From: an uncultured Fidelibacterota bacterium
GTDB lineage: Bacteria > Fidelibacterota > Marinisomatia > Marinisomatales > UBA1611
DNA: 64,000 bases
Direction: 5' to 3'
Assembly (NCBI GenBank): GCA_937893835.1
Contig: CALCSS010000050.1
Coordinates: forward strand, 5,456 to 69,455
The notes below the pieces were generated by a model. The model did not search any database and was not told where the DNA came from. It worked only from the letters and a program-made list of their open reading frames with translations. This document shows, one piece after another, positions 1-51,897 of the stretch. The position numbers were made by a program, and so were the translations under genes. Numbering within the stretch: position 1 is the stretch's first letter; each line of letters begins with the position of its first letter.

Positions 1-2682
1 GATAGATTAGACCAAGGCTATCTTATAACTTCAGACTTTATACAAAAGAGGTTGCCAGATCTTTTGTCGAATGTTCAGGATGTGAAGCCTGAGGTATCTG
101 AGGTTTATGTTGAGGTTTTGCCAGATGATAAGAAGCCTCTAGAACCACAGCGGCAGGAGAGAATCATTACAGACCTAGGCCAATCTCCAAGTAGCTATAT
201 CCCCAATACCTTATTCCTAGAGCAGCGAGAGGGAAAGGTATTAAGGGAGCAACCACGGGTTTCTATTCCAAAAAAGGTCGTCAGAACCCTTGAGGCACCT
301 AAAATGCCTAGGCCAAAGGAGTCGCTTGGCCAGCGCCTTCCCAAGCATATTCTTCCAAGGTATGTTCTAAGACCAGGTCAGCCATTTCTTTATGAGATAC
401 CAAAGAATAGTACAGATGAGTTTTATAGTTTTAGATGGGATAATCAACCACCTAAAGGAATGTATTTTTTATATGAGAGCAAATCCATTAATTGGGTTCC
501 TACGGATAAGCAGCTAGATGCATTCCCAATTTCATATATGGTAAGAATGAAGGTCGATGAGCTTATGGAGGCTACAACTGGTACCGTTGAACAGGAACAA
601 GTATTTAAAGCTACTCCAGTTCTAGAGAGTAGAGAAGAGGGACTTTGGATTTATGTCAATGATCCTCCAAGATTTTTAACGAAGCCAACAATAACTGAGT
701 TTATAGCTGGATCAACCTTTCGCTATGAGCCAGTTGTGCAAGATAGGAATAAAGATGCATCTATTCGTTTTGAATTAGAGGTTGCACCGGAAGGAATGAC
801 GATTGATAATGGAATTGTTGTCTGGAAGACTGACAGTGCCCATGTTGAGGTATATGATGTTAGAATCGTTGCCACCGATGGTTTTGAACGTACCGCTCAA
901 AATTTTCAACTCTTTTCTAGAGCAGGAGTTAAAATACTCTCTCGGGCTCCGGTCAGTGCGAGCGTTGGGTCACCATATACTTATCCAGTAAAAGTTTGGA
1001 GACAAAAGGCTGATCAAAAGATCAATTATAAATTATTTTATGGCCCAGATGGAATGTCCTTACAACCAGATGGTACCATCTCATGGACTCCGAATCCAGT
1101 ACAGGTAGACAGTATTGAATATGCTATAATTGCAAGCCATGGCGTTGCAACTGATACTCAGTTTGTCAATCTTTTTGTTAATCACCCACCCATAATCAGA
1201 TCGGCACCGATGGCCATGAATACTGTAATGGTTGGTCTTTCATGGGATTTTGAATTAAAAATTGAAGATCCCAATAAGAATGATAGATTGGTTTTCACTG
1301 CACATAAATTACCACAAGGCATGAGAATGGACCCTCATACTGGTTACTTGCGGTGGGAACCCACAATGAATGACCTAGACTTTCATGAATTGCAGATAGA
1401 GATTTCTGATGGCCATGAGTCAAGAATGATAGAAGCGGAATTTTTTGTCAACTCTCCTGTTAATATTGTATCTGTGCCCATTATGTCAGCAACTGTTGGT
1501 GAGGAATATTCCTATAGGCTTATGATTGATGACAAGAATAAAGGGGCACTCCTTCCATTTAAACGAGTGGTGAAGGTTGATGATGTTTCAACGATTAGGA
1601 TGTATTCAATTAATATCACAGACGATGTGACAATTTCAAATATTGACAGGTATTTAGGTGACTGGCACAATGCAGAGGCTATATACTATGTTGACCCAAA
1701 ATATCCCGCCGACTCGCTTGTCTCGAGGCTAAACCTAAAACGATATACCCATTCAGTGTTTTTTGAAGATGATAGGTTGTGGGTCTTATTGAACACCAGA
1801 GATGGAAGAACTATTAAAATCAAAGATTTTCTTTGGGAGTTTTTTCATGGGGCAAAGGGAAAACCTCCTAGGGTTGTAGTCGAGAGAGTTAATCCATTCC
1901 GTTTTCGTTTGTTGGACTTTCCAGAAGGCATGGTTGTAGAGGGATCATCGGGAACATTACGATGGACACCAACCGTAGATCAGGCAGACGTTCACCGTAT
2001 TACTGTTGTTGCATCTGATGGATATAGTAAAAACGAACAAAACTATGAGGTATACACCAACCATCGTCCAACAATAGTCTCAAATCCGCCGCATATGGGA
2101 CTTGTGGGCGAATTGTTTAAATATCAAGTTAGAGTTGATGACAAAAACGAGAACTCTAAACTTGAATATACTCTTCTAAAAGGTCCACACGGAATGCAGA
2201 TGGATCGTTACGGTAAGATCCTCTGGGTACCTAAAGCCGCACAGATCAATAATAATTCATTTGAAGTAGCTGTTAGTGATGGTTATGAAACAGATACTCA
2301 ACTTGGAAAAATATTTATTAATAATGCCCCCACTATTATGTCTAATCCAAAACCCGTGGGCCTAACAGGGCACTCTTGGCGTTATAAAATTTCAACTGAG
2401 GATTTAAACGGAGATAAGGTTGCATATAGGGCTGTAAGGCTACCAAAATATGCACGTTTTGATAAAAAGAAAGCTATTGTAGAATGGACACCTCGAAAAA
2501 ACCAGTTGGGAATGAATGACTTCATATTAATGGCAGTTGATGAGCATGGTGCGACATCAACACATGAATTTCAGGTACACGTTTTTCATGATCCCAGCAC
2601 CAAGCAGTTGGTCAACACTGGTTGGCCTCTTATGCTAACTTTCGTAGGAGTGGTCTTCGCTTGGGGAGTGGCTCAGATCTAA
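1..2682 (+). CDS. Large cell-surface protein (partial, 5' end outside window): seven tandem cadherin-like / He_PIG-type Ig-fold repeats and a C-terminal transmembrane anchor
   Basis: The ORF track gives 52..2682 (TTG start), but the same frame is open without a stop back to base 1, so the gene enters the window already in progress. Seven ~95-aa modules share N-x-P-P/T-I ... G-x-[ILV]-x-W-x-P ... D-G/H (GIVVWKT..VATDGF, GTISWTPN..IASHG, GYLRWEPT..ISDGH, GTLRWTPT..ASDGY, GKILWVPK..VSDGY, AIVEWTPR..AVDEHG). The last ~20 aa (GWPLMLTFVGVVFAWGVAQI) form one hydrophobic helix. Confidence 0.75.
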   Translation, partial: DRLDQGYLITSDFIQKRLPDLLSNVQDVKPEVSEVYVEVLPDDKKPLEPQRQERIITDLGQSPSSYIPNTLFLEQREGKVLREQPRVSIPKKVVRTLEAPKMPRPKESLGQRLPKHILPRYVLRPGQPFLYEIPKNSTDEFYSFRWDNQPPKGMYFLYESKSINWVPTDKQLDAFPISYMVRMKVDELMEATTGTVEQEQVFKATPVLESREEGLWIYVNDPPRFLTKPTITEFIAGSTFRYEPVVQDRNKDASIRFELEVAPEGMTIDNGIVVWKTDSAHVEVYDVRIVATDGFERTAQNFQLFSRAGVKILSRAPVSASVGSPYTYPVKVWRQKADQKINYKLFYGPDGMSLQPDGTISWTPNPVQVDSIEYAIIASHGVATDTQFVNLFVNHPPIIRSAPMAMNTVMVGLSWDFELKIEDPNKNDRLVFTAHKLPQGMRMDPHTGYLRWEPTMNDLDFHELQIEISDGHESRMIEAEFFVNSPVNIVSVPIMSATVGEEYSYRLMIDDKNKGALLPFKRVVKVDDVSTIRMYSINITDDVTISNIDRYLGDWHNAEAIYYVDPKYPADSLVSRLNLKRYTHSVFFEDDRLWVLLNTRDGRTIKIKDFLWEFFHGAKGKPPRVVVERVNPFRFRLLDFPEGMVVEGSSGTLRWTPTVDQADVHRITVVASDGYSKNEQNYEVYTNHRPTIVSNPPHMGLVGELFKYQVRVDDKNENSKLEYTLLKGPHGMQMDRYGKILWVPKAAQINNNSFEVAVSDGYETDTQLGKIFINNAPTIMSNPKPVGLTGHSWRYKISTEDLNGDKVAYRAVRLPKYARFDKKKAIVEWTPRKNQLGMNDFILMAVDEHGATSTHEFQVHVFHDPSTKQLVNTGWPLMLTFVGVVFAWGVAQI

Positions 2683-3732
2683 ATAACTCTTTAGACCAAT
2701 CATTTGCAAGAGTGTCTCCTCATTTAATATTCTGATTTTCATATCGACAATACCAAAAGGAAATGTTGGGCTCAATTCTTTTATTTTTAACCAGTCTTTT
2801 TCTGTTGTTAGAATATGTGAGGCACCTTTTTCTTTAGCTTTTTTTTCTATATTAAGGAGATCATTTTTTTTGTAAAAATAATGATCTGGAAAATTTTTTA
2901 CACCACACACATTAAAACCCATATGTTCTACTGTTGTTCTAAAAAACTCTGGATTTCCAAGTCCTGATGCTAGGTAAACATTATCATTCCCCATGACTTT
3001 TTTTGTTGATGTAGGACTAGAATACCTAATTATGGGGGTGACCCTTGTTTCGAATATTGGGAGAGAGGTTTCCTTGAGCTTTCTTTGTAATAGTGGGTCT
3101 GGTTTTTTCTTTGTTACCACAATCACATCCGCCCGTTTAATATTATACCAAGGCTCTCTTAATATCCCATAGGGTAATAGCTTATGGTCATTAACGCGGT
3201 CTCCTCCATTTATTAATACAATATCAAGGTCGCGACCCAATGCTCGATGTTGGAATCCATCATCCATAATTATTATCTCTGGATTAAACTTCTTTACAAG
3301 ATACAGACTTCCTCTGCGGCGATTTTCATCCACAAGTATTGGAACATTATTTAATTTTTTTGCCATCATATAGGATTCGTCTCCACAATGCTTCCAATTA
3401 TTCACCAAGGTCCCTTCCCCAGAAGATACAAGCAGTAAACCTTTTGTGTCTCGACCATAGCCCCTGCTTAGTATAGAAACCTTTATCCCTAATTTCACTA
3501 GTAGTGAGGCAAGGTAAATAACTGTGGGTGTTTTTCCTGTGCCTCCAACGGATATGTTTCCAATGCTGATGACCTTACACGATATTTTTTGAATAACAAA
3601 AAAATTTAAATTATAGAACAAGTTTCTCCAAAACACAATACCCCAATAGAACAAGGCAAGTGGGAAGAAAATATATTTGTGATACTCGTTAGCTTTTATC
3701 ATTATTTGTATAATACAAATTATTTTTTTCAA
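2635..3732 (-). CDS. lpxK: Tetraacyldisaccharide 4'-kinase
   Basis: 365-aa ORF with an N-terminal hydrophobic helix followed by the LpxK P-loop context VISIGNISVGGTGKTP. It is the last gene of an lpxB operon. The start is uncertain: ATG 3732 overlaps the upstream gene by 44 nt, and in-frame ATG 3702 is also possible. The 3' end overlaps the convergent surface-protein gene by 48 nt. Confidence 0.9.
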   Translation of the reverse strand: MKKIICIIQIMIKANEYHKYIFFPLALFYWGIVFWRNLFYNLNFFVIQKISCKVISIGNISVGGTGKTPTVIYLASLLVKLGIKVSILSRGYGRDTKGLLLVSSGEGTLVNNWKHCGDESYMMAKKLNNVPILVDENRRRGSLYLVKKFNPEIIIMDDGFQHRALGRDLDIVLINGGDRVNDHKLLPYGILREPWYNIKRADVIVVTKKKPDPLLQRKLKETSLPIFETRVTPIIRYSSPTSTKKVMGNDNVYLASGLGNPEFFRTTVEHMGFNVCGVKNFPDHYFYKKNDLLNIEKKAKEKGASHILTTEKDWLKIKELSPTFPFGIVDMKIRILNEETLLQMIGLKSYLDLSHSPSEDHSYES

Positions 3733-4342
3733 TTTTTCTCATTGACTCAATAAGGTCATTGATACAATTATCTTGATTCATAGATTTATTGTATTCAATG
3801 GGTGCGCCATATTCTATATATATTTTTCCAAACGGTTTTTCCAAATAAAATCTATCCCAATTATCAAATCCCCAATGTTTTGTTGAGTGTACACTTGTTG
3901 GAATGATTACCGCATTGGTTGTTTGAGCTGCGCGTATAATTCCAGGTTTGGGAATTCTCCTTGGCCCTGTGGGTCCATCCGGCGTGATAAAAAGTATGGA
4001 GCCAGGCTTTTTTAAAGACCTTATCATTTCCTTATAGGCTATCTCTCCTCCCTCTTTACTTGATCCTCTGATCATGGTCCATCCCCATCTAGTTGCAATC
4101 TCCGAAATTAAATCTGCATCTTTGTGCGTACCCGCTAACGCATTAACTTTTTCATGCCTTAGATCGTGTACTATTGATAATAGGTGCCCATGCCAGACTG
4201 CGATGATTACGGAATATCCGTTTTTAATAGAATTTAAATAATTTTCTCGTCCTCTAACATCTTTGCGATTTAAACCATAACATATTTTTAAGATAATACT
4301 TGATATAACCACTTTGATTTTGTTTTTCAGTGAGTCACTCAT
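3689..4342 (-). CDS. DUF374-type lysophospholipid-acyltransferase-like protein (family usually adjacent to or fused with Kdo transferase)
   Basis: 217-aa ORF wedged between lpxB (1-nt gap) and lpxK. The pattern AVWHGHLL ... FITPDGPTGPR resembles the DUF374/COG2121 family as I remember it. This family call is not search-verified. Confidence 0.55.
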   Translation of the reverse strand: MSDSLKNKIKVVISSIILKICYGLNRKDVRGRENYLNSIKNGYSVIIAVWHGHLLSIVHDLRHEKVNALAGTHKDADLISEIATRWGWTMIRGSSKEGGEIAYKEMIRSLKKPGSILFITPDGPTGPRRIPKPGIIRAAQTTNAVIIPTSVHSTKHWGFDNWDRFYLEKPFGKIYIEYGAPIEYNKSMNQDNCINDLIESMRKIEKNNLYYTNNDKS

Positions 4343-4343
4343 T

Positions 4344-5465
4344 TTAAATGGTTTGTTTTAAGATGGATTCAGCAGCTCTTGAATACGCTCCTGGTTTGCC
4401 CAAAGATTCTTTTAATTTTTTAAATTCAGACAACATCCTGATTCTCTTTTTTGATTCAGTATTAATAAGTTGGGTCAATTCATCTACCAATAATTCTGGT
4501 CTCATTTTATTTTGTAGTAGCTCAGGTACGATCTGTCTGTCAACAATGAGATTGACAATCGATGAGTATTTTACCTTAACCAAAGATTGAGCAATGAACC
4601 ATGATAGTGGAAATAATTTGTAACATACAACTAATGGGATTGCTTCTATCGCACATTCCAAAGTGGCGGTTCCTGATGAAACCAATGCAGCCGTTCCAAC
4701 GATCATGGTTTTTCTGGCATCGGTTTCTATTTTGAAATATTCAGGACAATTAGGTAAGGTTATATTTGAAGATTTGCCAACAAGAACCTGTAGATTGTCG
4801 AATTTTTTTCTTAGCAACACTACAGTTTCCAAATAAATTGGCCAATGCCTATCTATTTCCTGCTGCCTACTACCAGGAAGGAGAGTCAATATTGGATTTT
4901 TTATTTCTAAAGAATGTCTTTCATAGAATGATTTAGTTGATTCATCCATATGTTCAAGGTCCATAAATGGGTGGCCCAAATATTCTACAAAAAAGTTTTT
5001 GGATCTGTACCACTCTGCCTCAAATGGGAAAATAGAAATCGCTTGATCAATGACTTTTTTCATTTTTTCAACTCGCTCCTCCTTCCATGCCCATGCTTGT
5101 GGTAGAATGAAATAGGTTATGGGAATATTCAAATACGAAATCTTTTTTGCTAATCTCAGGTTAAATCCAGGATAATCAATAAGAATTATTCTACTTGGCC
5201 TTGATTTATAAATTGCATCTAATGTTCTTTGCATGATTTTTATCATACGTGGTAAATGCTTTAATACCTCCGTAAAGCCCATGATTGATAAATTATCAAT
5301 ATGTTCTATTATATGCATTCCCTCTTTTCTCATCATATCACCGCCGTGCCCTATAAAAGATGAGTTAGGGTGCAAATTTTTAATTGCTCTAATTAAATTT
5401 CCACCATGAAGGTCTCCTGATGGTTCTCCTGCAATTAAGAAATATTTTTTTAGGTTGGTTTCCAT
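4344..5465 (-). CDS. lpxB: Lipid-A-disaccharide synthase
   Basis: 373 aa. The N-terminal FLIAGEPSGDLHGGNLIRAIK matches the GE-x-SGD signature of GT19 LpxB. The size and lpxK context fit. Confidence 0.92.
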   Translation of the reverse strand: METNLKKYFLIAGEPSGDLHGGNLIRAIKNLHPNSSFIGHGGDMMRKEGMHIIEHIDNLSIMGFTEVLKHLPRMIKIMQRTLDAIYKSRPSRIILIDYPGFNLRLAKKISYLNIPITYFILPQAWAWKEERVEKMKKVIDQAISIFPFEAEWYRSKNFFVEYLGHPFMDLEHMDESTKSFYERHSLEIKNPILTLLPGSRQQEIDRHWPIYLETVVLLRKKFDNLQVLVGKSSNITLPNCPEYFKIETDARKTMIVGTAALVSSGTATLECAIEAIPLVVCYKLFPLSWFIAQSLVKVKYSSIVNLIVDRQIVPELLQNKMRPELLVDELTQLINTESKKRIRMLSEFKKLKESLGKPGAYSRAAESILKQTI

Positions 5466-5493
5466 AAATAAAATACTATGGGTGCTTCAATCG

Positions 5494-6066
5494 TTATAAA
5501 AACGTATTTAACAATATCAACAATAAAATGAAAAATATATTTTGGAGGGTCCTTTTTTCTGTTTTTAATGTTTTAGAAAAACTTAACGGAGATTGTATGT
5601 TAGGTCCAACCCAAGAGCTTATTTGTGGAAACAAGCGAGGAACATTTTTACAATACGTATCATATTCGTCTTTGAACAAGTTATTAAGAGTCTCTTCTTC
5701 TAATGAGATGATCATTAAATATTGAAATGTAAAATATAAAAAGACAATCAAGCATAATTCACTCATATATCTTCCGCCTGCGACAAGTGTAATGCCTACA
5801 TATATTACCATATTACCAAGGTAAAGTGGGTTTCTTGTATGTGAAAAAGGTCCGCTTGTACACAATGATGGTGCCCCTACATTCATAGTTCTGGTTACTC
5901 CACCAGCATAGCGGACCGCATTGATTCGAATTGATTCGCCCAAGAGGACCAAGATCGAACCGTATATAAAATATGGCAATCTAGGATCAGAAAAGAAAAT
6001 TAACGTTAACGCTATAGGAATAGGTGTAAAGCTACGGTTTGAAAACAAGAATTTTCTTACGTCCAT
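5494..6066 (-). CDS. Polytopic membrane methyltransferase of the ICMT/PEMT fold (candidate LmtA-like lipid A 1-phosphate methyltransferase)
   Basis: 190 aa with several hydrophobic helices. It carries the family motifs TSGPFSHTRNPLYLGN and SLEEETLNNLFKDEYDTYCKNVPRLFP (compare ICMT L-x-T-x-G-x-Y-x3-RHP-x-Y and EE-x2-L-x3-FG-x2-Y-x2-Y). The ATG overlaps the upstream stop (TAATG at 6064..6068). The family call is solid; the substrate is inference. Confidence 0.65.
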   Translation of the reverse strand: MDVRKFLFSNRSFTPIPIALTLIFFSDPRLPYFIYGSILVLLGESIRINAVRYAGGVTRTMNVGAPSLCTSGPFSHTRNPLYLGNMVIYVGITLVAGGRYMSELCLIVFLYFTFQYLMIISLEEETLNNLFKDEYDTYCKNVPRLFPQISSWVGPNIQSPLSFSKTLKTEKRTLQNIFFILLLILLNTFL

Positions 6067-7049
6067 TAGTGTATATCCTGTATGATCAATCTTTGGATTT
6101 CCATTGCAAACTCAAGAGCATCTCTCCCCGCCTTTCCTGTAACTATGGGAGTTGCTTTACCTTGCACCGAAAAAACAAAATTCTCTAATTCCTTTTGTAG
6201 CGGGTCACTAGTATCTAATTGGGGTTTGTCATAGGCTATAAATTCTGTTTTATCTCCATATTCAAACGGAACCGTCACTTCTGAGGTGTTATTATCATTA
6301 TCTGTAATTCTATAAATTTCGGTTGAACCAATAAGAAGATCGAGTGTTGCATATAGATTTTTTTGGAAGACCTTGATCTTTCTTACCTCATCTTGAGCTA
6401 CCCTGCTTGACATTATACTGGCGACAGTGCCATTGTTGAAACGAATTCTAGCATGAGCAATATCAATAGAATCTGTTAAAATGGATAGACCGGTCGCTTG
6501 AATGGATTTAACGGGTGCATTTACCAAAGACAATAATATGTCTATATCATGAATCATTTTATCTAGTACAACTGGTACATCCGTTCCTCTTGAAGTGTAG
6601 GGCGCAAGTCTCTGTATCTCAATGAATTTTGGTTTAATTTGGTATGGTTGTAGAGCCAAAAGAGCTGGGTTTAGTCTTTCTATATGACCAACTTGTATCA
6701 GCACGCCATTTTCTTTTGCAATTACAAGCAGGCGATCTGCCTCTTCGAGTGTCGCTGTAATGGGTTTTTCTATAAAAACATGTTTTTTCTTTTTTATGCA
6801 AATTTCTGCGATAATTGCATGATCTTGAGTGTTGGTCACTATTGACAATGCATCGACTGATTGTATTAGGGAATCAAGGTCGTCAAAAACCCTTACATCA
6901 TATTTTAAAGATATTTCAGCTGCTCTTTTTTTATCTGTATCAAAAATCCCTACCAGTTCAGCGCTACCAAGACTTTTATAATGTTTTACATGGTGCTGTC
7001 CTAGGTGCCCAACTCCAACTACACCAATTTTTATAGAATTATCAATCAT
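6066..7049 (-). CDS. Gfo/Idh/MocA-family NAD-dependent oxidoreductase (candidate UDP-GlcNAc 3-dehydrogenase, GnnA-like)
   Basis: 327 aa. It has the N-terminal Rossmann motif IKIGVVGVGHLGQHH, the EKP motif (HVFIEKPIT) and VGHIERLNPA. It is the first gene of the lpxB/lpxK operon. The family call is solid; the GnnA role is inference from context. Confidence 0.7.
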   Translation of the reverse strand: MIDNSIKIGVVGVGHLGQHHVKHYKSLGSAELVGIFDTDKKRAAEISLKYDVRVFDDLDSLIQSVDALSIVTNTQDHAIIAEICIKKKKHVFIEKPITATLEEADRLLVIAKENGVLIQVGHIERLNPALLALQPYQIKPKFIEIQRLAPYTSRGTDVPVVLDKMIHDIDILLSLVNAPVKSIQATGLSILTDSIDIAHARIRFNNGTVASIMSSRVAQDEVRKIKVFQKNLYATLDLLIGSTEIYRITDNDNNTSEVTVPFEYGDKTEFIAYDKPQLDTSDPLQKELENFVFSVQGKATPIVTGKAGRDALEFAMEIQRLIIQDIH

Positions 7050-7189
7050 ATTATACCATAAAATTACTTCAACAGAATGCGAGAATAAACGCTGAAACGC
7101 ATGAATAATGAAATCAATGAAAAATCTTGCATTTATTGATTACAAACAGCAATTTTATATATAATTCGAGGTATTAATGGAGTTTCAAA

Positions 7190-7879
7190 ATGGCTAACGA
7201 CATTAAATCCGGAGTTGGTTTCATCATTCCGGCAGCCGGCGTCGTCGGCTTTTTCACATCTCTCCTTATGGGAGAGACCCTACTTAGCATCATTATTGCT
7301 GTATCGGGCATATTAGTATGGTTTATCTATATGTTGGTTATGGAATCCCACATGCCACACGAAATGGGCAATATGATAATATTGTTCGGTATTCTGCTTT
7401 CACTGGGTATATTTTTTGGTTTTGGCGTAACTCAAAATATGTGGGGCGGATTTGAATTTCAACCAGAGGGTTCAATATTTTCACTTGTAATTCTATTTTT
7501 TGCTGTTCTGACTGGTCTTAATTTTCGTAACCAGCAAGCATCTGGCCTCAAACCACAAAACAATACAAGTGGTCTCACTGAACAAGATAGAGAGCTTGTT
7601 ATGAGTGCGTTGAACAAATCAAGCTCACATACCTCAAACTCCGACGAACCGAAGGTCATTGTTGTGAAACAAGAGCCAACCGCGCCAATAGAAGAGAATA
7701 AAGACGATAAGAAAGAAGATGTTACTTTACAGACTCCATCCCACGATCCTCATGGAATTAGCCAAAACCCTTATTTTGCTTATCCACCAGATTATTATTA
7801 TGATGAAGACGAAGATGACGAAGATGACGAAGATGAATGGGAAGATGAATGGGAAGATGAATGGGAAGATGATGAATAA
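7190..7879 (+). CDS. Hypothetical 4-TM membrane protein with low-complexity linker and Trp/acidic C-terminal tail
   Basis: 229 aa. There are four hydrophobic segments in the first ~115 aa, then a polar linker. The C-terminus is YYYDEDEDDEDDEDEWEDEWEDEWEDDE. It is followed by a strong terminator. I recognise no family. Confidence 0.6.
   Translation: MANDIKSGVGFIIPAAGVVGFFTSLLMGETLLSIIIAVSGILVWFIYMLVMESHMPHEMGNMIILFGILLSLGIFFGFGVTQNMWGGFEFQPEGSIFSLVILFFAVLTGLNFRNQQASGLKPQNNTSGLTEQDRELVMSALNKSSSHTSNSDEPKVIVVKQEPTAPIEENKDDKKEDVTLQTPSHDPHGISQNPYFAYPPDYYYDEDEDDEDDEDEWEDEWEDEWEDDE
7811..7864 (+). repeat. In-frame coding tandem repeats: 2 x 9 bp (gaagatgac) then 3 x 12 bp (gaagatgaatgg)
   Basis: Read directly: gaagatgac at 7811-7819 and 7820-7828; gaagatgaatgg at 7829-7840, 7841-7852 and 7853-7864. 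Together they encode EDDEDD(EDEW)x3. Confidence 0.9.
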
Positions 7880-9039: not shown

Positions 9040-9591
9040 TTAAAATGAATCCAGTGAGGGGTCACCACCGAAGTCATAGGTCAGATTGTTAAATAACCCG
9101 ACCTGTAGATTTTTTGCAAAATATATAGTTCTACCCTCATTTGTGCTTACGATTCCATCTGCCCAAACCATTAATTGCCCATTCCTATCCAAAAGTCTTT
9201 TTATATCTATGTTATATACAATTTTTGTATGATAGGGTCTTATTTGTCCTTTGAATTTTACATCACCGACGCCCAATGCTCTACCGCGTCCTTTCCCTCC
9301 GATCCATGTCATAAAGAACCCCACAAGTTGCCACAGTCCATCAAGACCTAGGCATCCAGGCATTACAGGGTCATTTTTAAAGTGACAGTGAAAGAACCAA
9401 AGACTTTCATCGATATCTAATTCAGCTTTGATTCTACCCTTGTCGTATTTTCCACCATCTTGATAGATCTCAATGATGCGGTCAACCATTAACATTGGTG
9501 ATAGTGGTAATTTCCCGGTATTGGGTCCCATAAGATTCCCTTCTCCGCTTTTTAATAGATCATTTTTTTCGTAACTGTTTTTCTGTGACAT
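9040..9591 (-). CDS. fabA: 3-hydroxydecanoyl-ACP dehydratase / trans-2-decenoyl-ACP isomerase
   Basis: 183 aa, collinear with E. coli FabA over its whole length by eye. It includes the active-site block [30 protein letters not shown] (E. coli [30 protein letters not shown]), [14 protein letters not shown] and VGLF. Confidence 0.9.
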   Translation of the reverse strand: [183 protein letters not shown]

Positions 9592-9710
9592 TATATTTGA
9601 AATTTTATAGGCGGAGAGTACAACAGTTTACCTGATATTAAAATGACATTTGATAAGCAATATTCAATAATATTCTGGTAAATTTCTAACAAAATAAAGT
9701 GGAGAGAAGA

Positions 9711-10493
9711 ATGTCCAAATGGGTACTATTGCTGGGCGGGTCAACCGGCCATGGAGCTGCAACAGCCAAACGATTATCGCGTGATGGTTATGGAATAATT
9801 GCGTTTCATTTTGATAGAGGAGAAGCAAAAAAAATTGCAGAAGAAACAATTTCCGAGGTCAATGAAATAACAAAGGGACACTGTCATTATTTTAATACAA
9901 ATGCTGCCTCAGAGGAGTCAATGGATAAATATATACCCAAGATAAAAGAGATAACCAAAGGTGCACCATTAAAGTTATTATTGCATTCAATTGCCTTTGG
10001 GACGACAACTAATTTTTTTGGTAAAAAACCTGTTACTCAACGTCAAATGGATATGACAGTACATGTTATGGGCAATTCTCTATTATACTGGACACAAAAA
10101 CTTTATGGTGAAAAATTACTTGCCTCTGGGTCTAGGGTGTTAGGGCTGACCAGTGAGGGTAATTATTTAGCAATGGAGGGATATGGCCCAGTAAGCGTAG
10201 CCAAGGTGGCAATGGAGGCAATTATACGACAAATTGGTTGGGAACTTGGAGAATTTGGAATCACTGCTAATGCAGTACAGGCAGGTATAACACCAACGCG
10301 GGCCCTTACAAAAATCACAGAAAACTGGGAAGATTGGGTTGAAAGCACTAAAAAGAGAAACCCAATGCGAAGAACAACAACACCAGAAGATGTTGCTAGT
10401 ACGATTTCTATGCTATTAAAAGCTGAGGCAGACTTTATTAATTGTTCAATTATATACTGCGATGGTGGAGAGTCTAGGTCAGGGGCATTTTAA
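9711..10493 (+). CDS. SDR-family reductase, enoyl-ACP-reductase-like (FabL/FabI-type Y-x6-K)
   Basis: The ORF track starts at GTG 9699. ATG 9711 preceded by ggagagaaga is the more likely start. It has the motif LLLGGSTGHGAATAKRL, and YGPVSVAK gives Tyr-x6-Lys spacing (enoyl reductase type) rather than Y-x3-K. It is collinear by eye with B. subtilis FabL and divergent from fabA. Confidence 0.6.
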   Translation: MSKWVLLLGGSTGHGAATAKRLSRDGYGIIAFHFDRGEAKKIAEETISEVNEITKGHCHYFNTNAASEESMDKYIPKIKEITKGAPLKLLLHSIAFGTTTNFFGKKPVTQRQMDMTVHVMGNSLLYWTQKLYGEKLLASGSRVLGLTSEGNYLAMEGYGPVSVAKVAMEAIIRQIGWELGEFGITANAVQAGITPTRALTKITENWEDWVESTKKRNPMRRTTTPEDVASTISMLLKAEADFINCSIIYCDGGESRSGAF

Positions 10494-10506: not shown

Positions 10507-10896
10507 TTAGGAAGTAGAATCTTGAGTTAGTTTTTCTTCGATCAGGGCTATGAGTTCATGACAATCTTTATTTGGCGAAATATCAAAACTGCGCTTTGCC
10601 TCACTTAATGCATATTCCCACCAACCTTTTTTTGTATATGCAATTGCCAATTTTAGATGTGCTGTACCCAGGATTTGAAACTCATCCCTTTTTAATGTGC
10701 TTTGCTCGCCCCCATAAAGTCTAGACACTTCACGATATTCCATAATTGCCTCATCTAATAGGCCTCTTTGCAGATACCAGTTCCCAAGGTTTAAATGCCT
10801 AGATGGATCTTCCTTGGTGCAGGAGGTCATCATTAGCGATAGGCAAATAATTACTAAAAAACATTTATATTTATGAGGAGAAATAAAATCAATCAT
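10507..10896 (-). CDS. TPR-repeat lipoprotein (hypothetical)
   Basis: 129 aa. It has a signal peptide with lipobox-like LMMTSC and TPR-like helices (NLGNWYLQRGLLDEAIMEYREV, AIAYTKKGWWEYALSEAKRSF). Confidence 0.55.
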   Translation of the reverse strand: MIDFISPHKYKCFLVIICLSLMMTSCTKEDPSRHLNLGNWYLQRGLLDEAIMEYREVSRLYGGEQSTLKRDEFQILGTAHLKLAIAYTKKGWWEYALSEAKRSFDISPNKDCHELIALIEEKLTQDSTS

Positions 10897-43531: not shown

Positions 43532-44536
43532 TTGAAACTCACTCTCAGTGAGATTGCAAAACATTTAGAAGGAGATATTGTTGGTGACTCCTCATGTTTG
43601 ATTTCAGGTGTTTCGGAAATTCAAAATTCAAAACCTAATACCATCACCTTTTTAGGTAATCCATTATATAGTAAATACTTAAAGAATACCAACGCCGCAG
43701 CTATCATAGTAAGCGACAGTACTTTGTTGAGTGGTAGAAATGGAATTGTTGTAAAAAATCCTCAATTATCGATGTCAAGAACACTGGGTCTTTTTACAGA
43801 AAAAAATGAAAAAAGACCATCAATACATCCCAGATCAGTGATTTCAAAGAATTCGAATATTGGCAAAGATGTTAACATTGATGCAGGAGCCATTATAAAT
43901 GATGAGGTTAGTATTGGCGAGGGAAGTTCTATTGGGGCAAATTGTGTTATCGGTTCAAATACGGCTATTGGGAAAAATTGTATTATATCAGCTAATGTTT
44001 GTTTATATGAATCAATTGTCTTGGGTGATAACGTTATTGTACATAGTGGGACCATTATAGGTTGTGATGGTTTTGGATATGTGACTGTAAATGAAATACA
44101 TGAAAAAATACCACAAACAGGTAATGTGATCATTGGTGATGATGTAGAAATTGGATCTAATTGTGCCATTGACAGAGCAACAATTGGAAGTACCATTATT
44201 GGTGAAATGACAAAGATCGATAATTTGGTTCATATTGCTCATAATGTTAAGATAGGTAAAGGATGTCTTTTAACTGCAGGATTTGCAATTGCCGGTAGTT
44301 CAGAGGTTGGCGATTTTTGTACATTTGCTGGGCAGGTTGGAGTGGCACCACATTTGAAAATAGGTGATAGATCCATTGTTGCAGCAAAGTCAGGTGTAAC
44401 AAAATCATTAAAAGGTGATAAGGTGTATGCAGGGTTTCCAGCAAGAGAAATAAAAGAGCACAACAGAAGACTTGCGTTGATCAATGAGATTGAAAAATTG
44501 CGTGATAAATTGATTAAAATAAATAGAGTTGATTAA
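43532..44536 (+). CDS. lpxD: UDP-3-O-acylglucosamine N-acyltransferase
   Basis: 334 aa with a TTG start. The N-terminus is MKLTLSEIAKHLEGDIVGD, followed by long left-handed beta-helix hexapeptide repeats and GFPAREI near the C-terminus. Confidence 0.92.
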   Translation: MKLTLSEIAKHLEGDIVGDSSCLISGVSEIQNSKPNTITFLGNPLYSKYLKNTNAAAIIVSDSTLLSGRNGIVVKNPQLSMSRTLGLFTEKNEKRPSIHPRSVISKNSNIGKDVNIDAGAIINDEVSIGEGSSIGANCVIGSNTAIGKNCIISANVCLYESIVLGDNVIVHSGTIIGCDGFGYVTVNEIHEKIPQTGNVIIGDDVEIGSNCAIDRATIGSTIIGEMTKIDNLVHIAHNVKIGKGCLLTAGFAIAGSSEVGDFCTFAGQVGVAPHLKIGDRSIVAAKSGVTKSLKGDKVYAGFPAREIKEHNRRLALINEIEKLRDKLIKINRVD

Positions 44537-44544
44537 ATTATAAA

Positions 44545-45498
44545 ATGGAAAGAAAACAAAGAACGATCAGAACCTCACAGTCCTGCCAAGGCGTTGGTTT
44601 GCATACAGGGGTGAAAACTGTGATCACATTCCATCCCGCACCCGAAAATTCGGGGATTCGTTTCATTAGATCTGATATTACAGACTGTACTGAGATAAAA
44701 GCTGACATAGATCACGTTGTAGATATTTCACGTGGCACTACAATAGAAGAAAATGATGTCAGAATTCATACTGTAGAGCATGCGCTTGCAGCTGTGAGTG
44801 GATTAAGGCTAGACAATATCTTAATTGAGCTTACTGGTAAAGAGCCACCTGTTATGGATGGAAGCGCAAAAGATTTTGTTGAATGTTTAATAAAGGCTGG
44901 TATACGCGTTCAAAATAAAGAGCGAAAGGTTTTAGAAATAACGCGTGCTGTAAACTATACAAATTCATATAGAGATATTGATATCCACGTGATTCCCTCT
45001 GATAGATTTAGAATCACATTTATGGTTGAATATAATCTTTCAGCTCTTGGAACTCAGTACGAGGCAATTTACAATATGGAAGAAGATTTTGCCTTTGAGG
45101 TCGCACCAGCAAGAACTTTTTGTTTCTTGAGTGAGGTGGAGATGCTGAAGGAGAGAGGTCTGATTAAGGGTGGTGGTCTAGACAATGCAGTTGTGATAGT
45201 TGATAAGGAAATTGATTCCATTGAAATGGATAGATTGAAACTGTTATTTGGTATTGAGCATAATATAATTCAAGGGGCTAATGGGATATTGAATGGCAAG
45301 GTGCTAAGATTTAAGAATGAGCCAGTCCGACATAAGACCTTGGATCTTATTGGAGATCTCGCCCTTCTTGGTGTCCCCATCAGGGGCCACGTCACAGCAG
45401 CAAGAGCAGGACATGCAAGCAATGTTGAATTTGTAAAAAAATTAAAAAAACAATATTCTAAGGAATTAAAAATATTATGGACAGACAAAGATGAATGA
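44545..45498 (+). CDS. lpxC: UDP-3-O-acyl-N-acetylglucosamine deacetylase
   Basis: 317 aa. Motifs are QRTI..GVGLHTG, HTVEHALAA, HKTLDLIGDLALLG and AGHASN. Confidence 0.95.
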   Translation: MERKQRTIRTSQSCQGVGLHTGVKTVITFHPAPENSGIRFIRSDITDCTEIKADIDHVVDISRGTTIEENDVRIHTVEHALAAVSGLRLDNILIELTGKEPPVMDGSAKDFVECLIKAGIRVQNKERKVLEITRAVNYTNSYRDIDIHVIPSDRFRITFMVEYNLSALGTQYEAIYNMEEDFAFEVAPARTFCFLSEVEMLKERGLIKGGGLDNAVVIVDKEIDSIEMDRLKLLFGIEHNIIQGANGILNGKVLRFKNEPVRHKTLDLIGDLALLGVPIRGHVTAARAGHASNVEFVKKLKKQYSKELKILWTDKDE

Positions 45499-45955
45499 TT
45501 TATTGGAAAAAACAAAGTTTGATATAAATGACATAATAAAAATCTTACCACATAGATATCCGTTTATTTTAATTGATAAGATTGAAATCACTGATCCAGG
45601 AAAATCTCTGATTGCCTTAAAAAATGTGACAATTAATGAACCATTTTTTCAAGGTCATTTTCCAGGTCAGCCCATTTTCCCTGGAGTACTTTCTTTAGAG
45701 GTCTTATGTCAAGCGGGATCTTTTTTAATGTTGAATCAAGTTGATGACCCTCTAGAAAAGAATATGTTTTTCACGACAGTTGAAAAAACAAAATTCAAAC
45801 GACCAATAGTACCTGGGGACCAATTGAAGATAGAGGTTGAGCTTGTTAAAAAGAAACTTAATCTATGCAAATTCCACGGGAAATGTAGTATTGATGATAA
45901 ACTTGCTGTTGATGCCTTTTTTTCAGCTAATTTGGTAGATAGAGCAAGAGAATAA
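45491..45955 (+). CDS. fabZ: 3-hydroxyacyl-ACP dehydratase FabZ
   Basis: 154 aa. Motifs are LPHRYPFILIDKI and NEPFFQGHFPGQPIFPGVL. There is an 8-nt overlap with lpxC in a different frame. Confidence 0.95.
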   Translation: MNDLLEKTKFDINDIIKILPHRYPFILIDKIEITDPGKSLIALKNVTINEPFFQGHFPGQPIFPGVLSLEVLCQAGSFLMLNQVDDPLEKNMFFTTVEKTKFKRPIVPGDQLKIEVELVKKKLNLCKFHGKCSIDDKLAVDAFFSANLVDRARE

Positions 45956-45956
45956 T

Positions 45957-46730
45957 ATTTCTAGTCTATTACACCAAACGGCCATAATTCATGAATCAGC
46001 CATTTTAGGAAATAATGTAAAGGTTGGTCCATACTCTGTTATAGAAAAAGATGTGACGATTGAAGATAATTGCGAAATCGGTAATTTTGTTACCATTTGC
46101 CCAAACACATACATTGCTGAAGATTGCAAGATCTTGCATTGCAGTTCTATTGGAGAAATACCGCAAGACCTAAAGTTTGAAGGAGAAAGAACAAAAACTA
46201 TAATTGGTGCCCGTACAAAAATAAGGGAATATGTGACTGTTAATCGTGGAACAAAAGCACTTGGTCAAACACAGGTTGGTTCCGATTGTTTATTGATGGC
46301 CTCATCCCATGTGGCACATGACTGTATCTTAGGCGACAATGTAATAATGTCCAATTTATCAACCCTTGGTGGTCATGTAGAAGTAGGTGAATGGGCAGTT
46401 TTAGGAGGAGGAGTGCTTGTACATCAGTTTACAAAGATAGGGCCCCATGCATTTATAGGAGGAGGTTTTAGGGCAGTCCAAGATGTCCCTCCATTTATAA
46501 TGGCAGCAGAACATCCTCTCAGGTATAAGGGAGTTAATTCAGTTGGATTGAAAAGAAGAGGCTTCTCACTAGAAGATAGGAGATCAATAAAAAAAATATA
46601 TCATATGTATTTTAAATCTGGACTAAATAGAGACGATGCTTTAAAAAAGATTGAGACAGAGATTCCCCCATCTAATAGCAAGGATCAGATTGTTGATTTT
46701 ATACATACATCTGATAGGGGTATTATTTAA
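45957..46730 (+). CDS. lpxA: UDP-N-acetylglucosamine acyltransferase (start proposed at non-canonical ATT)
   Basis: The track ORF (GTG 46053, 225 aa) lacks the conserved N-terminus. The frame is open from 45939 and encodes SSLLHQTAIIHESAILGNNVKVGPYSVIEKD upstream of 46053. The downstream part is collinear with E. coli LpxA (SSHVAHDCILGDN, VHQFTKIGPHAFIGGG, QDVPPF, GLKRRGFS). Gene identity is 0.95; the exact start is uncertain. Confidence 0.8.
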   Translation: MSSLLHQTAIIHESAILGNNVKVGPYSVIEKDVTIEDNCEIGNFVTICPNTYIAEDCKILHCSSIGEIPQDLKFEGERTKTIIGARTKIREYVTVNRGTKALGQTQVGSDCLLMASSHVAHDCILGDNVIMSNLSTLGGHVEVGEWAVLGGGVLVHQFTKIGPHAFIGGGFRAVQDVPPFIMAAEHPLRYKGVNSVGLKRRGFSLEDRRSIKKIYHMYFKSGLNRDDALKKIETEIPPSNSKDQIVDFIHTSDRGII

Positions 46731-46739
46731 ATTTATTTT

Positions 46740-47408
46740 GTGAAATTAATTTTTACAGTTGCTCTATTGTTGTCCTTTACATACCCTCAATCAGAGCTTT
46801 TTAACATCACCGATGGCAGCGCAAAAGAAATTGTATATTCCTCCTCATTTTGGCTAAGTGGGTCTCCAATGATAGATCCAATGTCTAATAATCGACTTAT
46901 TATAGAAACCGGATTATCCTCAATTCTTGTAGCGGCTAATTCAAATACCTTTAAATATCCAAATCTTGATGTTGGAATTAAAGTAACCAAGAATCTATCA
47001 TTGACATATAAATCCTATGGTTTTAAATCAGGAAATGATCATCCACAGATCACAGGCGGGGGTCTTCAATATTATTTTGGTGGTAAGGATACTCTAAATT
47101 GGAGTACCACTTTGCAGCGAATTGATTTAAAGGGACTGGAGTATTTTGGTTTAACGTCCTTATTGATAGATATTCGTAAATGGTTTCAGTGGAATGATCT
47201 TACTTTCCGAATAGGTATGGGTACAAACTTTTTTAAAGAGCGTTCATTTCTTGGAGATCATGATCTTCCCAAGACCATGGAAGGACAAATGAATTTCATC
47301 GGTTTTGATTTTGCTATTCCAATATCTGTAATGATCTTAGGATTAGAGAATCGAATTACACCACATAGATCAATTGTAACATTTTTCATTCAAAAAGAAA
47401 TATTCTAA
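46740..47408 (+). CDS. Hypothetical outer-membrane beta-barrel protein
   Basis: 222 aa with a GTG start and signal peptide MKLIFTVALLLSFTYPQ. It has an alternating amphipathic pattern and a C-terminal aromatic residue (..FFIQKEIF). I recognise no family. Confidence 0.5.
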   Translation: MKLIFTVALLLSFTYPQSELFNITDGSAKEIVYSSSFWLSGSPMIDPMSNNRLIIETGLSSILVAANSNTFKYPNLDVGIKVTKNLSLTYKSYGFKSGNDHPQITGGGLQYYFGGKDTLNWSTTLQRIDLKGLEYFGLTSLLIDIRKWFQWNDLTFRIGMGTNFFKERSFLGDHDLPKTMEGQMNFIGFDFAIPISVMILGLENRITPHRSIVTFFIQKEIF

Positions 47409-51045: not shown

Positions 51046-51897
51046 TTAGGGTTTTGTCTTCCATCTTCTATGAAACCAAAAATATTGTTCTGGGTTAGCT
51101 CGGATGTGTTGTTCTAGAATATTTGTATAGTCTTGAGTAATGTTATTAATGTCCTGACTTGATGTATCCACAGGAGAGAATCTTAACTCATAGTGCTGGA
51201 ATGATCTTTTGATACAAACGCCCATTACCATAGGCGCTGATGTATTGATATGAAAAAGGGCCGCACCCTTAGGCGTAGATGCTGGCAAACCAAAAAACTT
51301 TACAAAAACACCCTTTTTCTTGGCATCTTGATCGCTCACCAATCCAAGTATCCCATTTTTTTTTAAAACATCATACATCTTTTCAATTGGTTCTTTCCGA
51401 AAAATATGTTTGGTTCCAGGAATTTCTCGTTGCTCTTGAAAGAATTGATCAGCGCCTCTATTTTGTTGGCGCTGGGCCACACCAGTGAATAAAGAAGCAT
51501 ATTCGCCAAGCCATTTCCCCAAGATCTCCCAACATCCAAAGTGACCAGTAATGAAAACAATACCCTTTCCCTGATTTGTGGCGGACCTTAGAAAATCCTC
51601 TCCAATAACATCTATCTTTATTCCATCCCACGATCTAGGAATTGATATAAAATCAATGAAGTTTTGAGAAAAGAATAAATAGACCTTTATTAAAGTAAGA
51701 TTCACTTTTGATTCAGCCCATTCTGGAAATGCCCTTTGCAAATTTTCCCTAGCTAGCTCTTTCCTAAAACGTATATTATGAAATAATATGCTTGCCATAT
51801 GTCCTGCCAATCTGTTTCTGGACCTTTTTGAAATGGCTGATAGACCGGCTTTGCATAAGGTAAGCAAAAAATATGTGATTGTATGAGAACGCTTCAT
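51046..51897 (-). CDS. Lipid A biosynthesis late acyltransferase family protein (LpxL/HtrB-like)
   Basis: 283 aa with an N-terminal TM. It has the H-x4-E/D catalytic motif in FITGHFGCWE, plus PEQYFWFHRRWK near the C-terminus, typical of the family. Confidence 0.75.
   Translation of the reverse strand: MKRSHTITYFLLTLCKAGLSAISKRSRNRLAGHMASILFHNIRFRKELARENLQRAFPEWAESKVNLTLIKVYLFFSQNFIDFISIPRSWDGIKIDVIGEDFLRSATNQGKGIVFITGHFGCWEILGKWLGEYASLFTGVAQRQQNRGADQFFQEQREIPGTKHIFRKEPIEKMYDVLKKNGILGLVSDQDAKKKGVFVKFFGLPASTPKGAALFHINTSAPMVMGVCIKRSFQHYELRFSPVDTSSQDINNITQDYTNILEQHIRANPEQYFWFHRRWKTKP

Follow-up and report, generated by a model that had tools for sequence, protein, structure and literature searches.

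The DNA analysed here is a window of 64,000 nucleotides (nt) from an uncultured Fidelibacterota bacterium (GenBank assembly GCA_937893835.1, contig CALCSS010000050.1, positions 5,456 to 69,455), and the subject of this study is a cluster of five lipid A genes on its minus strand (7049..2635). In the direction of transcription, the cluster contains a gnnA-like oxidoreductase gene (6066..7049), a gene for a polytopic membrane methyltransferase (MT; 5494..6066), lpxB (4344..5465), a DUF374 gene of the LpxJ family (3689..4342) and lpxK (2635..3732), all tightly packed. The original prediction for this DNA had placed five minus-strand open reading frames (ORFs) at these positions and had proposed, from the two first genes, a Leptospira-style modified lipid A. 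All five ORFs were present in the ORF listing, both MT motifs that it quoted occur in the translation, and its family assignments hold (PF01408/PF22725 for the oxidoreductase, PF04191/PF04140 for the MT, then LpxB, DUF374 and LpxK). The nearest relatives of the window proteins came from marine metagenomes, and the labelled ones belonged to 'Candidatus Marinimicrobia / Neomarinimicrobiota' metagenome-assembled genomes (MAGs). Marinimicrobia/Neomarinimicrobiota (SAR406) are now placed by NCBI in the phylum Fidelibacterota, within the Fibrobacteres-Chlorobi-Bacteroidetes (FCB) group.

The junctions between the genes were read on the minus strand. The stop codon of the gnnA-like gene overlaps the ATG of the MT gene (CAC TAA TG GAC, i.e. 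TAATG). A spacer of 28 nt precedes the ATG of lpxB, and lpxB and the DUF374 gene are 1 base apart (4343). The DUF374 gene overlaps lpxK at 3689-3732 if lpxK starts at the TTG at 3732, and over 14 nt if it starts at the ATG at 3702. All the junctions of the original prediction were recovered in this way, with the nuance that the size of its 3689-3732 overlap hinges on the TTG start. The ATG at 3702 is the more likely start. It gives an LpxK of 355 aa and is used in the gene call of a same-species contig (L090); no exact match was found for the 365-aa protein that starts at the TTG, probably since the real start is the ATG. No terminator-like site was found inside the cluster on the minus strand. 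Because the genes overlap or nearly abut and no such internal site was detected, the five genes form one operon, devoted to the membrane-proximal half of lipid A assembly. Identical gene order was found in relatives whose proteins are 38-65% identical, so the arrangement is not due to chance. The AT-rich intergenic region of 140 nt (7050..7189) between gnnA and a divergent gene is the probable promoter region of the operon; promoter-like minus-strand matches lie at 7188-7161 and 7072-7045, their total count not being above that of shuffled sequences.

The first gene of the operon encodes a Gfo/Idh/MocA oxidoreductase of 327 aa, dependent on nicotinamide adenine dinucleotide (NAD), which was compared with Pfam, NCBIfam and PDB profiles. 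In Pfam, it matched PF01408 (103 bits) and PF22725. Its closest characterised relative was judged among solved structures. The top entry was PDB 7bvj/7bvk (204.5 bits, E 2.5e-59, residues 6-319); next came 3ezy at 74 bits, inositol dehydrogenases (IolG) at about 60 bits and 3q2k/3q2i, sugar-nucleotide 3-dehydrogenases of the WlbA type, at 25-35 bits. [quoted passage not shown] (2020). The window protein is 37% identical to AfGnnA over 300 aligned residues. AfGnnA was then aligned with homologues that are linked to lpx genes in Marinimicrobia, LCP-89, KSB1, Calditrichota and other MAGs, and 49 columns were found to be invariant, well beyond the generic family signature. The elements invariant with AfGnnA include GVGxLG at the NAD site (G12-V-G14-x-L16-G17), the EKP catalytic motif (E94-K95-P96), GHIxR (G121-H122-I123-x-R125), R147-L148...R154..D157 and DxMIHDxD (D163-x-M-I-H167-D168-x-D170). 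The best NCBIfam model was NF040723, an archaeal UDP-GlcNAc 3-dehydrogenase (190.9 bits against a cut-off of 450, residues 6-317, model positions 1-296). The shortfall is uninformative, because genuine AfGnnA scores only 163 bits on this model and is also below 450. The model is archaea-specific, and no bacterial GnnA model was among the NCBIfam hits of either the window protein or AfGnnA. The archaeal enzyme has the same curated reaction, the window protein lying below its equivalog cut-off, and it feeds a diacetamido-sugar pathway, not lipid A.

With AfGnnA, the window protein shares full-length homology, the Gfo/Idh/MocA architecture, the EKP and DxMIHDxD motifs and a location among lpx genes. 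It differs in its surroundings, since the window gnnA has no adjacent gnnB and is followed by the MT gene instead, and in its host, which belongs to the FCB group and not to the Proteobacteria. In A. ferrooxidans, gnnA and gnnB are reportedly neighbours between lpxA and lpxB. By its sequence, the oxidoreductase is a credible GnnA orthologue and probably acts as a UDP-GlcNAc 3-dehydrogenase. The claim that it is GnnA-like is borne out by the lead of 7bvj over the next structure (204.5 against 74 bits), by NF040723 being its best model and by its position in the lpx operon; placed by profile against characterised GnnA and other Gfo/Idh/MocA enzymes, it had GnnA as its nearest solved relative.

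The second gene encodes a protein of 190 aa with the fold shared by the isoprenylcysteine carboxyl methyltransferase (ICMT) and phosphatidylethanolamine methyltransferase (PEMT) families. It was analysed with Pfam, NCBIfam, AlphaFold2 and Foldseek. Pfam returned PF04191 (PEMT, 35.2 bits, threshold 25) and PF04140 (ICMT, 26.9 bits). On the NCBIfam ICMT model NF040696, the protein scored 29 bits against a cut-off of 160, and only the C-terminal cofactor region was matched (residues 67-149). Sequence similarity to the ICMT of PDB 4a2n (Ma-ICMT) was marginal (E 0.015). The AlphaFold2 model, built on 95 relatives, had a predicted local distance difference test score (pLDDT) of 96.4. Foldseek retrieved Ma-ICMT 4a2n (TM score 0.58), the eukaryotic ICMT 5v7p and related steroid reductases from it, with a probability of 1.00. 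The MT thus has in common with ICMT/Ste14p the fold and the C-terminal cofactor motifs. A search through all 1.84 billion cluster representatives gave 6858 relatives with E<=1e-3 and, at the stricter limit of E<=1e-10, 831; the best relatives listed were mostly 185-210 aa long and could be aligned from end to end. Nine residues are invariant in the family (R47, G72, R78, P80, Y82, N85, Y116, I119 and E123). The motifs for S-adenosylmethionine binding are kept (R78-N-P80-L-Y82..N85 and E123-E124), and the family has conserved elements of its own at the N-terminus (F8, R11, P17) and at the C-terminus (E170). The relation to LmtA was assessed at the level of hidden Markov models: the LmtA model TIGR04571 (LmtA_Leptospira) was the best NCBIfam model for all of the 95 nearest representatives at 50% identity. 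LmtA of Leptospira interrogans is reported to be the lipid A Kdo2 1-phosphate O-methyltransferase (Hinckley et al. 2005; Kdo, 3-deoxy-D-manno-oct-2-ulosonic acid).

The genomic context of the MT family was examined by a synteny scan with one genome per species. An alignment of five MT sequences was used as the query and 80 loci were returned, from Marinimicrobia, LCP-89, KSB1, Calditrichota, Ignavibacteria/Melioribacteraceae, Edwardsbacteria, Eisenbacteria and Bacteroidota-labelled MAGs. Neighbouring genes were identified with the window proteins as probes, and only loci with enough sequence were counted in each denominator. lpxB lay immediately downstream of the MT gene in 73/73 loci. lpxK was present in the cluster in 63/65 loci and the DUF374 gene in 57/65. 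The adjacency to lpxB holds in several phyla at MT identities down to 38-40%. A second kind of coupling was found in at least 13 clusters (P0345, P0418-P0426, P0483, P0484 and P0489), in which an N-terminal LpxB-like domain is fused to a C-terminal MT in proteins of 580-638 aa. Their divergence reached 31% identity, the contigs were up to 1.56 Mb long, and the four fusion proteins with an NCBI organism label came from Armatimonadota or Armatimonadetes MAGs. LmtA was again the best match of the MT part. From gene order and gene fusion together, a role of the MT at or near the LpxB step is likely, and the MT itself is rather likely to act in the lipid A pathway. This lpxB-coupled MT family is the new part of the finding, and the window MT corresponds to it in size (about 190-200 aa), in the nine invariant residues and in having lpxB directly downstream. 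Four other members (P0264, P0284, P0328 and P0358; 410-604 aa) carry two tandem PEMT/ICMT domains of the family. The glycosyltransferase (GT19) part of the fusion proteins falls within a divergent LpxB-like clade of proteins of about 415 aa, common in Firmicutes-, Chloroflexi- and Xenobia-labelled MAGs.

The gnnA gene follows a distribution of its own. It was found directly upstream of MT-lpxB in 54/77 loci. The positive loci comprised all 39 Marinimicrobia-like ones (39/39) together with LCP-89, KSB1, Calditrichota, three 'Cytophagia'-labelled MAGs and the locus L063, where the gene order is skp-lpxD-lpxC-lpxA-gnnA-MT-lpxB. In Ignavibacteria, Melioribacteraceae and Bacteroidetes-labelled MAGs, gnnA did not occupy the position upstream of the MT gene. 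Because the MT occurs without gnnA in many lineages, the two genes are independent. The ancient core, conserved over a wide range of lineages, is MT-lpxB-(lpxJ)-lpxK; gnnA is an addition found in some lineages only. The two enzymes do not make up one package, since the MT-lpxB-lpxK unit exists without GnnA. A single functional pair of gnnA and the MT was likewise rejected, given MT-lpxB-lpxK units without gnnA in Ignavibacteria, Melioribacteraceae and others. In seven loci of these lineages (L053 at 7085-7813, L055, L056, L059, L072, L074 and L081), a same-strand ORF of about 240 aa stands at the place of gnnA. The L053 copy is a HAD-type phosphatase by Pfam (PF06888 'Put_Phosphatase', PHOSPHO1-like); the other copies are presumed to be the same from their size and position.

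The best overall explanation, held with slightly more confidence than doubt, is a lipid A operon in which GnnA and the MT work with LpxB, LpxJ and LpxK. GnnA would oxidise C-3 of UDP-GlcNAc with NAD+, and an unlinked DegT-type aminotransferase, GnnB, would turn the resulting 3-keto sugar into the 3-amino derivative UDP-GlcNAc3N. LpxA, LpxC and LpxD, encoded at 43.5-46.7 kb of the window, would have to accept UDP-GlcNAc3N and would acylate it, so that some or all of the primary chains would be amide-linked to a backbone of 2,3-diamino-2,3-dideoxyglucose (GlcN3N). LpxB would then condense both halves. The MT, lodged in the inner membrane and carrying the cofactor motifs of ICMT/LmtA, RNPLY..N and LEEE, would methylate the lipid A precursor with S-adenosylmethionine at or near the LpxB step. 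Its most plausible acceptor, by analogy with LmtA, would be the 1-phosphate. LpxK would add the 4'-phosphate; the secondary acyl chains would come from LpxJ and an LpxL-type enzyme. The 1-phosphate is also the most economical acceptor, because lipid X, a substrate of LpxB, and the product of LpxB both carry it. Methylation at this very position is nonetheless a tentative proposal that is, on balance, doubtful; it remains a guess, because the superfamily also methylates carboxylates, amines and thiols.

Several observations weigh against this explanation, as regards both the sugar backbone and the methyl group. For the backbone, they concern GnnB. GnnA is useful only with a DegT-family GnnB, so its product would otherwise be a dead end. 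Six-frame tblastn with the authentic E. coli ArnB found no DegT-like sequence in the window, and tblastn with the same query found no GnnB in the loci of 82 relatives (about 1.1 Mb). None was present either in about 16 kb of extra flanking sequence of the same species (about 9 kb and about 6.5 kb), taken from European Nucleotide Archive contigs that match the window at 99.6% identity or more. Pfam gave no DegT-type aminotransferase in the window among ORFs of 330-480 aa or among the mid-sized and larger ORFs; the caveat of the original prediction that no DegT aminotransferase, waaA or lpxH/I/G lies in the window stands for the mid-sized and larger ORFs analysed by Pfam. About 80 kb of this species thus contains no GnnB, and none was found beside gnnA in the 54 relatives with gnnA so placed. 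In the relatives whose upstream ORFs were checked by Pfam, gnnA was directly preceded by genes for RtcB, a URO-D-like protein, a phosphoesterase, a SerA-like protein, a sigma-70 factor or an amidotransferase. GnnB is unlinked to the operon. With no GnnB found in about 80 kb or beside gnnA in relatives, the GlcN3N backbone therefore stays a prediction, and the missing GnnB is its main weakness. A literature search found no paper on the lipid A of Marinimicrobia.

The same absence favours another role for the GnnA-like enzyme, which could make UDP-3-keto-GlcNAc for a product outside lipid A, for instance to supply a 2,3-diacetamido sugar to an O-antigen, a capsule or a glycoprotein, or could have drifted to another sugar. 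In either case, lipid A would be built on an ordinary glucosamine (GlcN) backbone. The archaeal enzyme, one of its two nearest characterised relatives, has its role in a diacetamido-sugar pathway, and substrate specificity is labile among Gfo/Idh/MocA enzymes. The LpxA of the window, moreover, is nearer to LpxA of Bacteroides fragilis and E. coli than to that of L. interrogans, i.e. no more like Leptospira LpxA than GlcN-type LpxAs are, a ranking that is uninformative alone. The sugar preference of Leptospira LpxA has been attributed to how a backbone carbonyl is oriented and not to a diagnostic side chain. Against a role outside lipid A stand the first place that gnnA keeps in the lpxB operon across five or more phylum-level lineages, its place between lpxA and lpxB in L063 (reportedly as in A. 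ferrooxidans), translational coupling to the next gene and the 49 columns invariant with AfGnnA; such a role is considered somewhat unlikely. For GlcN3N in the lipid A of this bacterium, the arguments on the two sides are evenly balanced. The original prediction had described this chemistry as tied mainly to Leptospira. That is correct for the methyl-phosphate and incorrect for GlcN3N, as GlcN3N lipid A and gnnA/gnnB have been reported from many proteobacteria. 'Leptospira-style lipid A' is therefore only partly supported.

For the MT, the doubt concerns both the acceptor and the pathway. Its best NCBIfam model, TIGR04571, gave 59.8 bits against a cut-off of 325, and the match was partial (residues 32-183, model positions 49-198 of 252). 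Because of this score and this coverage, the MT is not LmtA. None of the 95 representatives came near the LmtA cut-off (best E 3.7e-28). By its sequence, the family is related to LmtA yet distinct from it. The LmtA-like label is accordingly kept for the ICMT fold and for LmtA as the closest curated family, and is dropped for identity with LmtA itself. The window MT and LmtA are alike in being polytopic, in belonging to the ICMT/PEMT superfamily and in their link to lipid A. The window MT has about 190 aa against 252 model positions, and belongs to a separate family of at least 831 clusters (50% identity); this lpxB-coupled family is found in FCB-group phyla and Armatimonadota and not in spirochaetes. 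The MT could thus act in the lipid A or lipopolysaccharide (LPS) pathway on another acceptor (the 4'-phosphate, the carboxylate of Kdo or of a uronic acid, or a hydroxyl or amine of the backbone), LmtA then being merely a distant analogue. The failure of the family to reach LmtA membership is in favour of such an acceptor, as is the versatility of a superfamily that methylates carboxylates, phosphates, amines and thiols and whose members matched here in NCBIfam include ICMT and the methanethiol S-methyltransferase MddA. Synteny and fusion, for their part, tie the MT to LpxB and not to a particular atom. On the other side, LmtA was the best model for every member tested, with most of the protein matched, while the ICMT match was C-terminal only, and coupling to LpxB would fit the 1-phosphate best. 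Another acceptor within the pathway is regarded as unlikely.

It is more improbable that the MT is not a lipid A enzyme at all and methylates phosphatidylethanolamine or a polyprenyl phosphate as a general envelope housekeeping function within the lpxB operon. The best Pfam model of the MT is indeed PEMT and not ICMT (35.2 against 26.9 bits), and the PHOSPHO1-like HAD phosphatase (PF06888) lies directly upstream in Ignavibacteria. PEMT is a broad Pfam family, whose threshold the MT passes, and the gap between the two scores is small. The context of the MT is lpxB and lpxK, with nothing for phospholipid head groups. Its adjacency to lpxB in 73/73 loci, maintained across phyla at about 40% identity, and the independent fusion to an LpxB-like domain elsewhere also stand against this function, even though the LpxB part of the fusions is a divergent GT19 (37-52 bits against a cut-off of 190). 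The last alternative, that the adjacency is fortuitous and the extra genes are unrelated passengers, draws on nothing more than the general breadth of both superfamilies. The gene order is conserved in 80 species-level genomes of several phyla, a start and a stop codon overlap, and fusions exist. Fortuitous adjacency is effectively refuted by the synteny across loci and is given almost no weight.

A methylated 1-phosphate of lipid A was known only from Leptospira as of 2023 (PMC10248169); the LPS that it goes with there is recognized by the immune system in an atypical way. A literature search found no paper naming both lpxB and isoprenylcysteine carboxyl methyltransferase. In its broadest form, the proposal is that the lpxB-locked MT family methylates the 1-phosphate of lipid A or of a precursor throughout the FCB group by gene order (Marinimicrobia/SAR406, KSB1, Calditrichota, LCP-89 and Ignavibacteria) and in Armatimonadota by fusion, that this is a trait common to some bacteria that are among the most abundant in oceans and sediments, and that it is combined with an all-amide GlcN3N lipid A in SAR406; as a whole, this is speculative and probably too wide. 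Lipid A chemistry sets the charge and stability of the outer membrane and its recognition by innate immunity. If the proposal is true, a spirochaete 'curiosity' becomes widespread in environmental diderms, including SAR406, a highly abundant clade of the deep ocean, and the MT family, with its 831 or more clusters at 50% identity, receives its first functional assignment. The GnnA part is more ordinary and would add one more phylum to the GlcN3N producers, if GnnB is found. The gene content of these loci suggests an unusual outer-membrane chemistry in several abundant bacterial phyla.

The other genes of the operon and the remaining lipid A genes of the window were assigned with the same profile libraries. 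The lipid A disaccharide synthase LpxB (373 aa) gave 318.7 bits on PF02684 and 283.7 bits on TIGR00215 (cut-off 190.25). The tetraacyldisaccharide 4'-kinase LpxK gave 283.2 bits on PF02606 and 235.2 bits on TIGR00682 (cut-off 91.95). The DUF374 protein (217 aa; PF04028, 72 bits against 26.8) is a late (secondary) acyltransferase: the DUF374 domain defines LpxJ, a family of 3'-secondary acyltransferases (PMC6148475), and the gene at 3689..4342 is thereby explained. It shares this domain with LpxJ of Helicobacter, Campylobacter and Rickettsia (PMC6148475), and in the window it sits between lpxB and lpxK. A third lipid A locus on the minus strand (51046..51897) encodes a late acyltransferase of the LpxL/LpxM family (283 aa; PF03279, 166.9 bits). 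With the DUF374 gene, the genome therefore encodes both LpxL-type and LpxJ-type secondary acyltransferases.

The second lipid A locus lies on the plus strand (43532..46730) and contains lpxD (43532-44536), lpxC (44545-45498), fabZ (45491-45955) and lpxA (45957-46730), in the order uppS-bamA-skp-lpxD-lpxC-fabZ-lpxA-(222 aa)-dxr-rseP. LpxA (323.8 bits) and LpxD (374.9 bits) were both above the cut-offs of their NCBIfam models. The lpxA gene has no canonical start codon at its conserved N-terminus: an in-frame TAG is present at 45936-45938, and the first ATG, GTG or TTG occurs at 46053. Homology to E. coli LpxA begins at about residue 2-5 of the translation from 45957 (ATT), one base past the fabZ stop codon. 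A non-canonical start (ATT or ATA) or coupled re-initiation is probably used. Directly after lpxA and abutting dxr lies an ORF of 222 aa (46740-47408, plus strand), whose beta-rich product has an N-terminus like a signal peptide and ends in ...KEIF. No match to it was found in Pfam, NCBIfam or PDB profiles, and a single-sequence AlphaFold2 model was unusable (pLDDT 30). This ORF keeps its position between lpxA and dxr in eight metagenomic relatives with identities down to 47%, and it evolves faster than the genes on either side. Its product resembles a small beta-barrel of the outer membrane and could be a candidate for a PagL/PagP-type enzyme that modifies lipid A; such an activity would matter for the question of ester or amide linkage.

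Other observations were made around the lpxB operon. The gene divergent from gnnA (7190-7879, plus strand) encodes a membrane protein of 229 aa whose C-terminal tail is extremely acidic (...DEDEDDEDDEDEWEDEWEDEWEDDE). No family matched it, and it is syntenic beside gnnA in nearly all Marinimicrobia loci. In two loci with 62% MT identity (L001 and L002), a gene for a PAP2-family phosphatase (LpxE/LpxF-like fold; 4781-5272, minus strand) is found about 4 kb from gnnA; at about this position, the window has a TPR-like ORF of 129 aa instead (10507-10896). Just upstream of the operon, FabA, which exceeds its equivalog cut-off, and a FabL-like enoyl-acyl carrier protein reductase of the short-chain dehydrogenase/reductase type are encoded at 9040-10493, beside ychF, an arrangement that is kept in nearly all Marinimicrobia loci.

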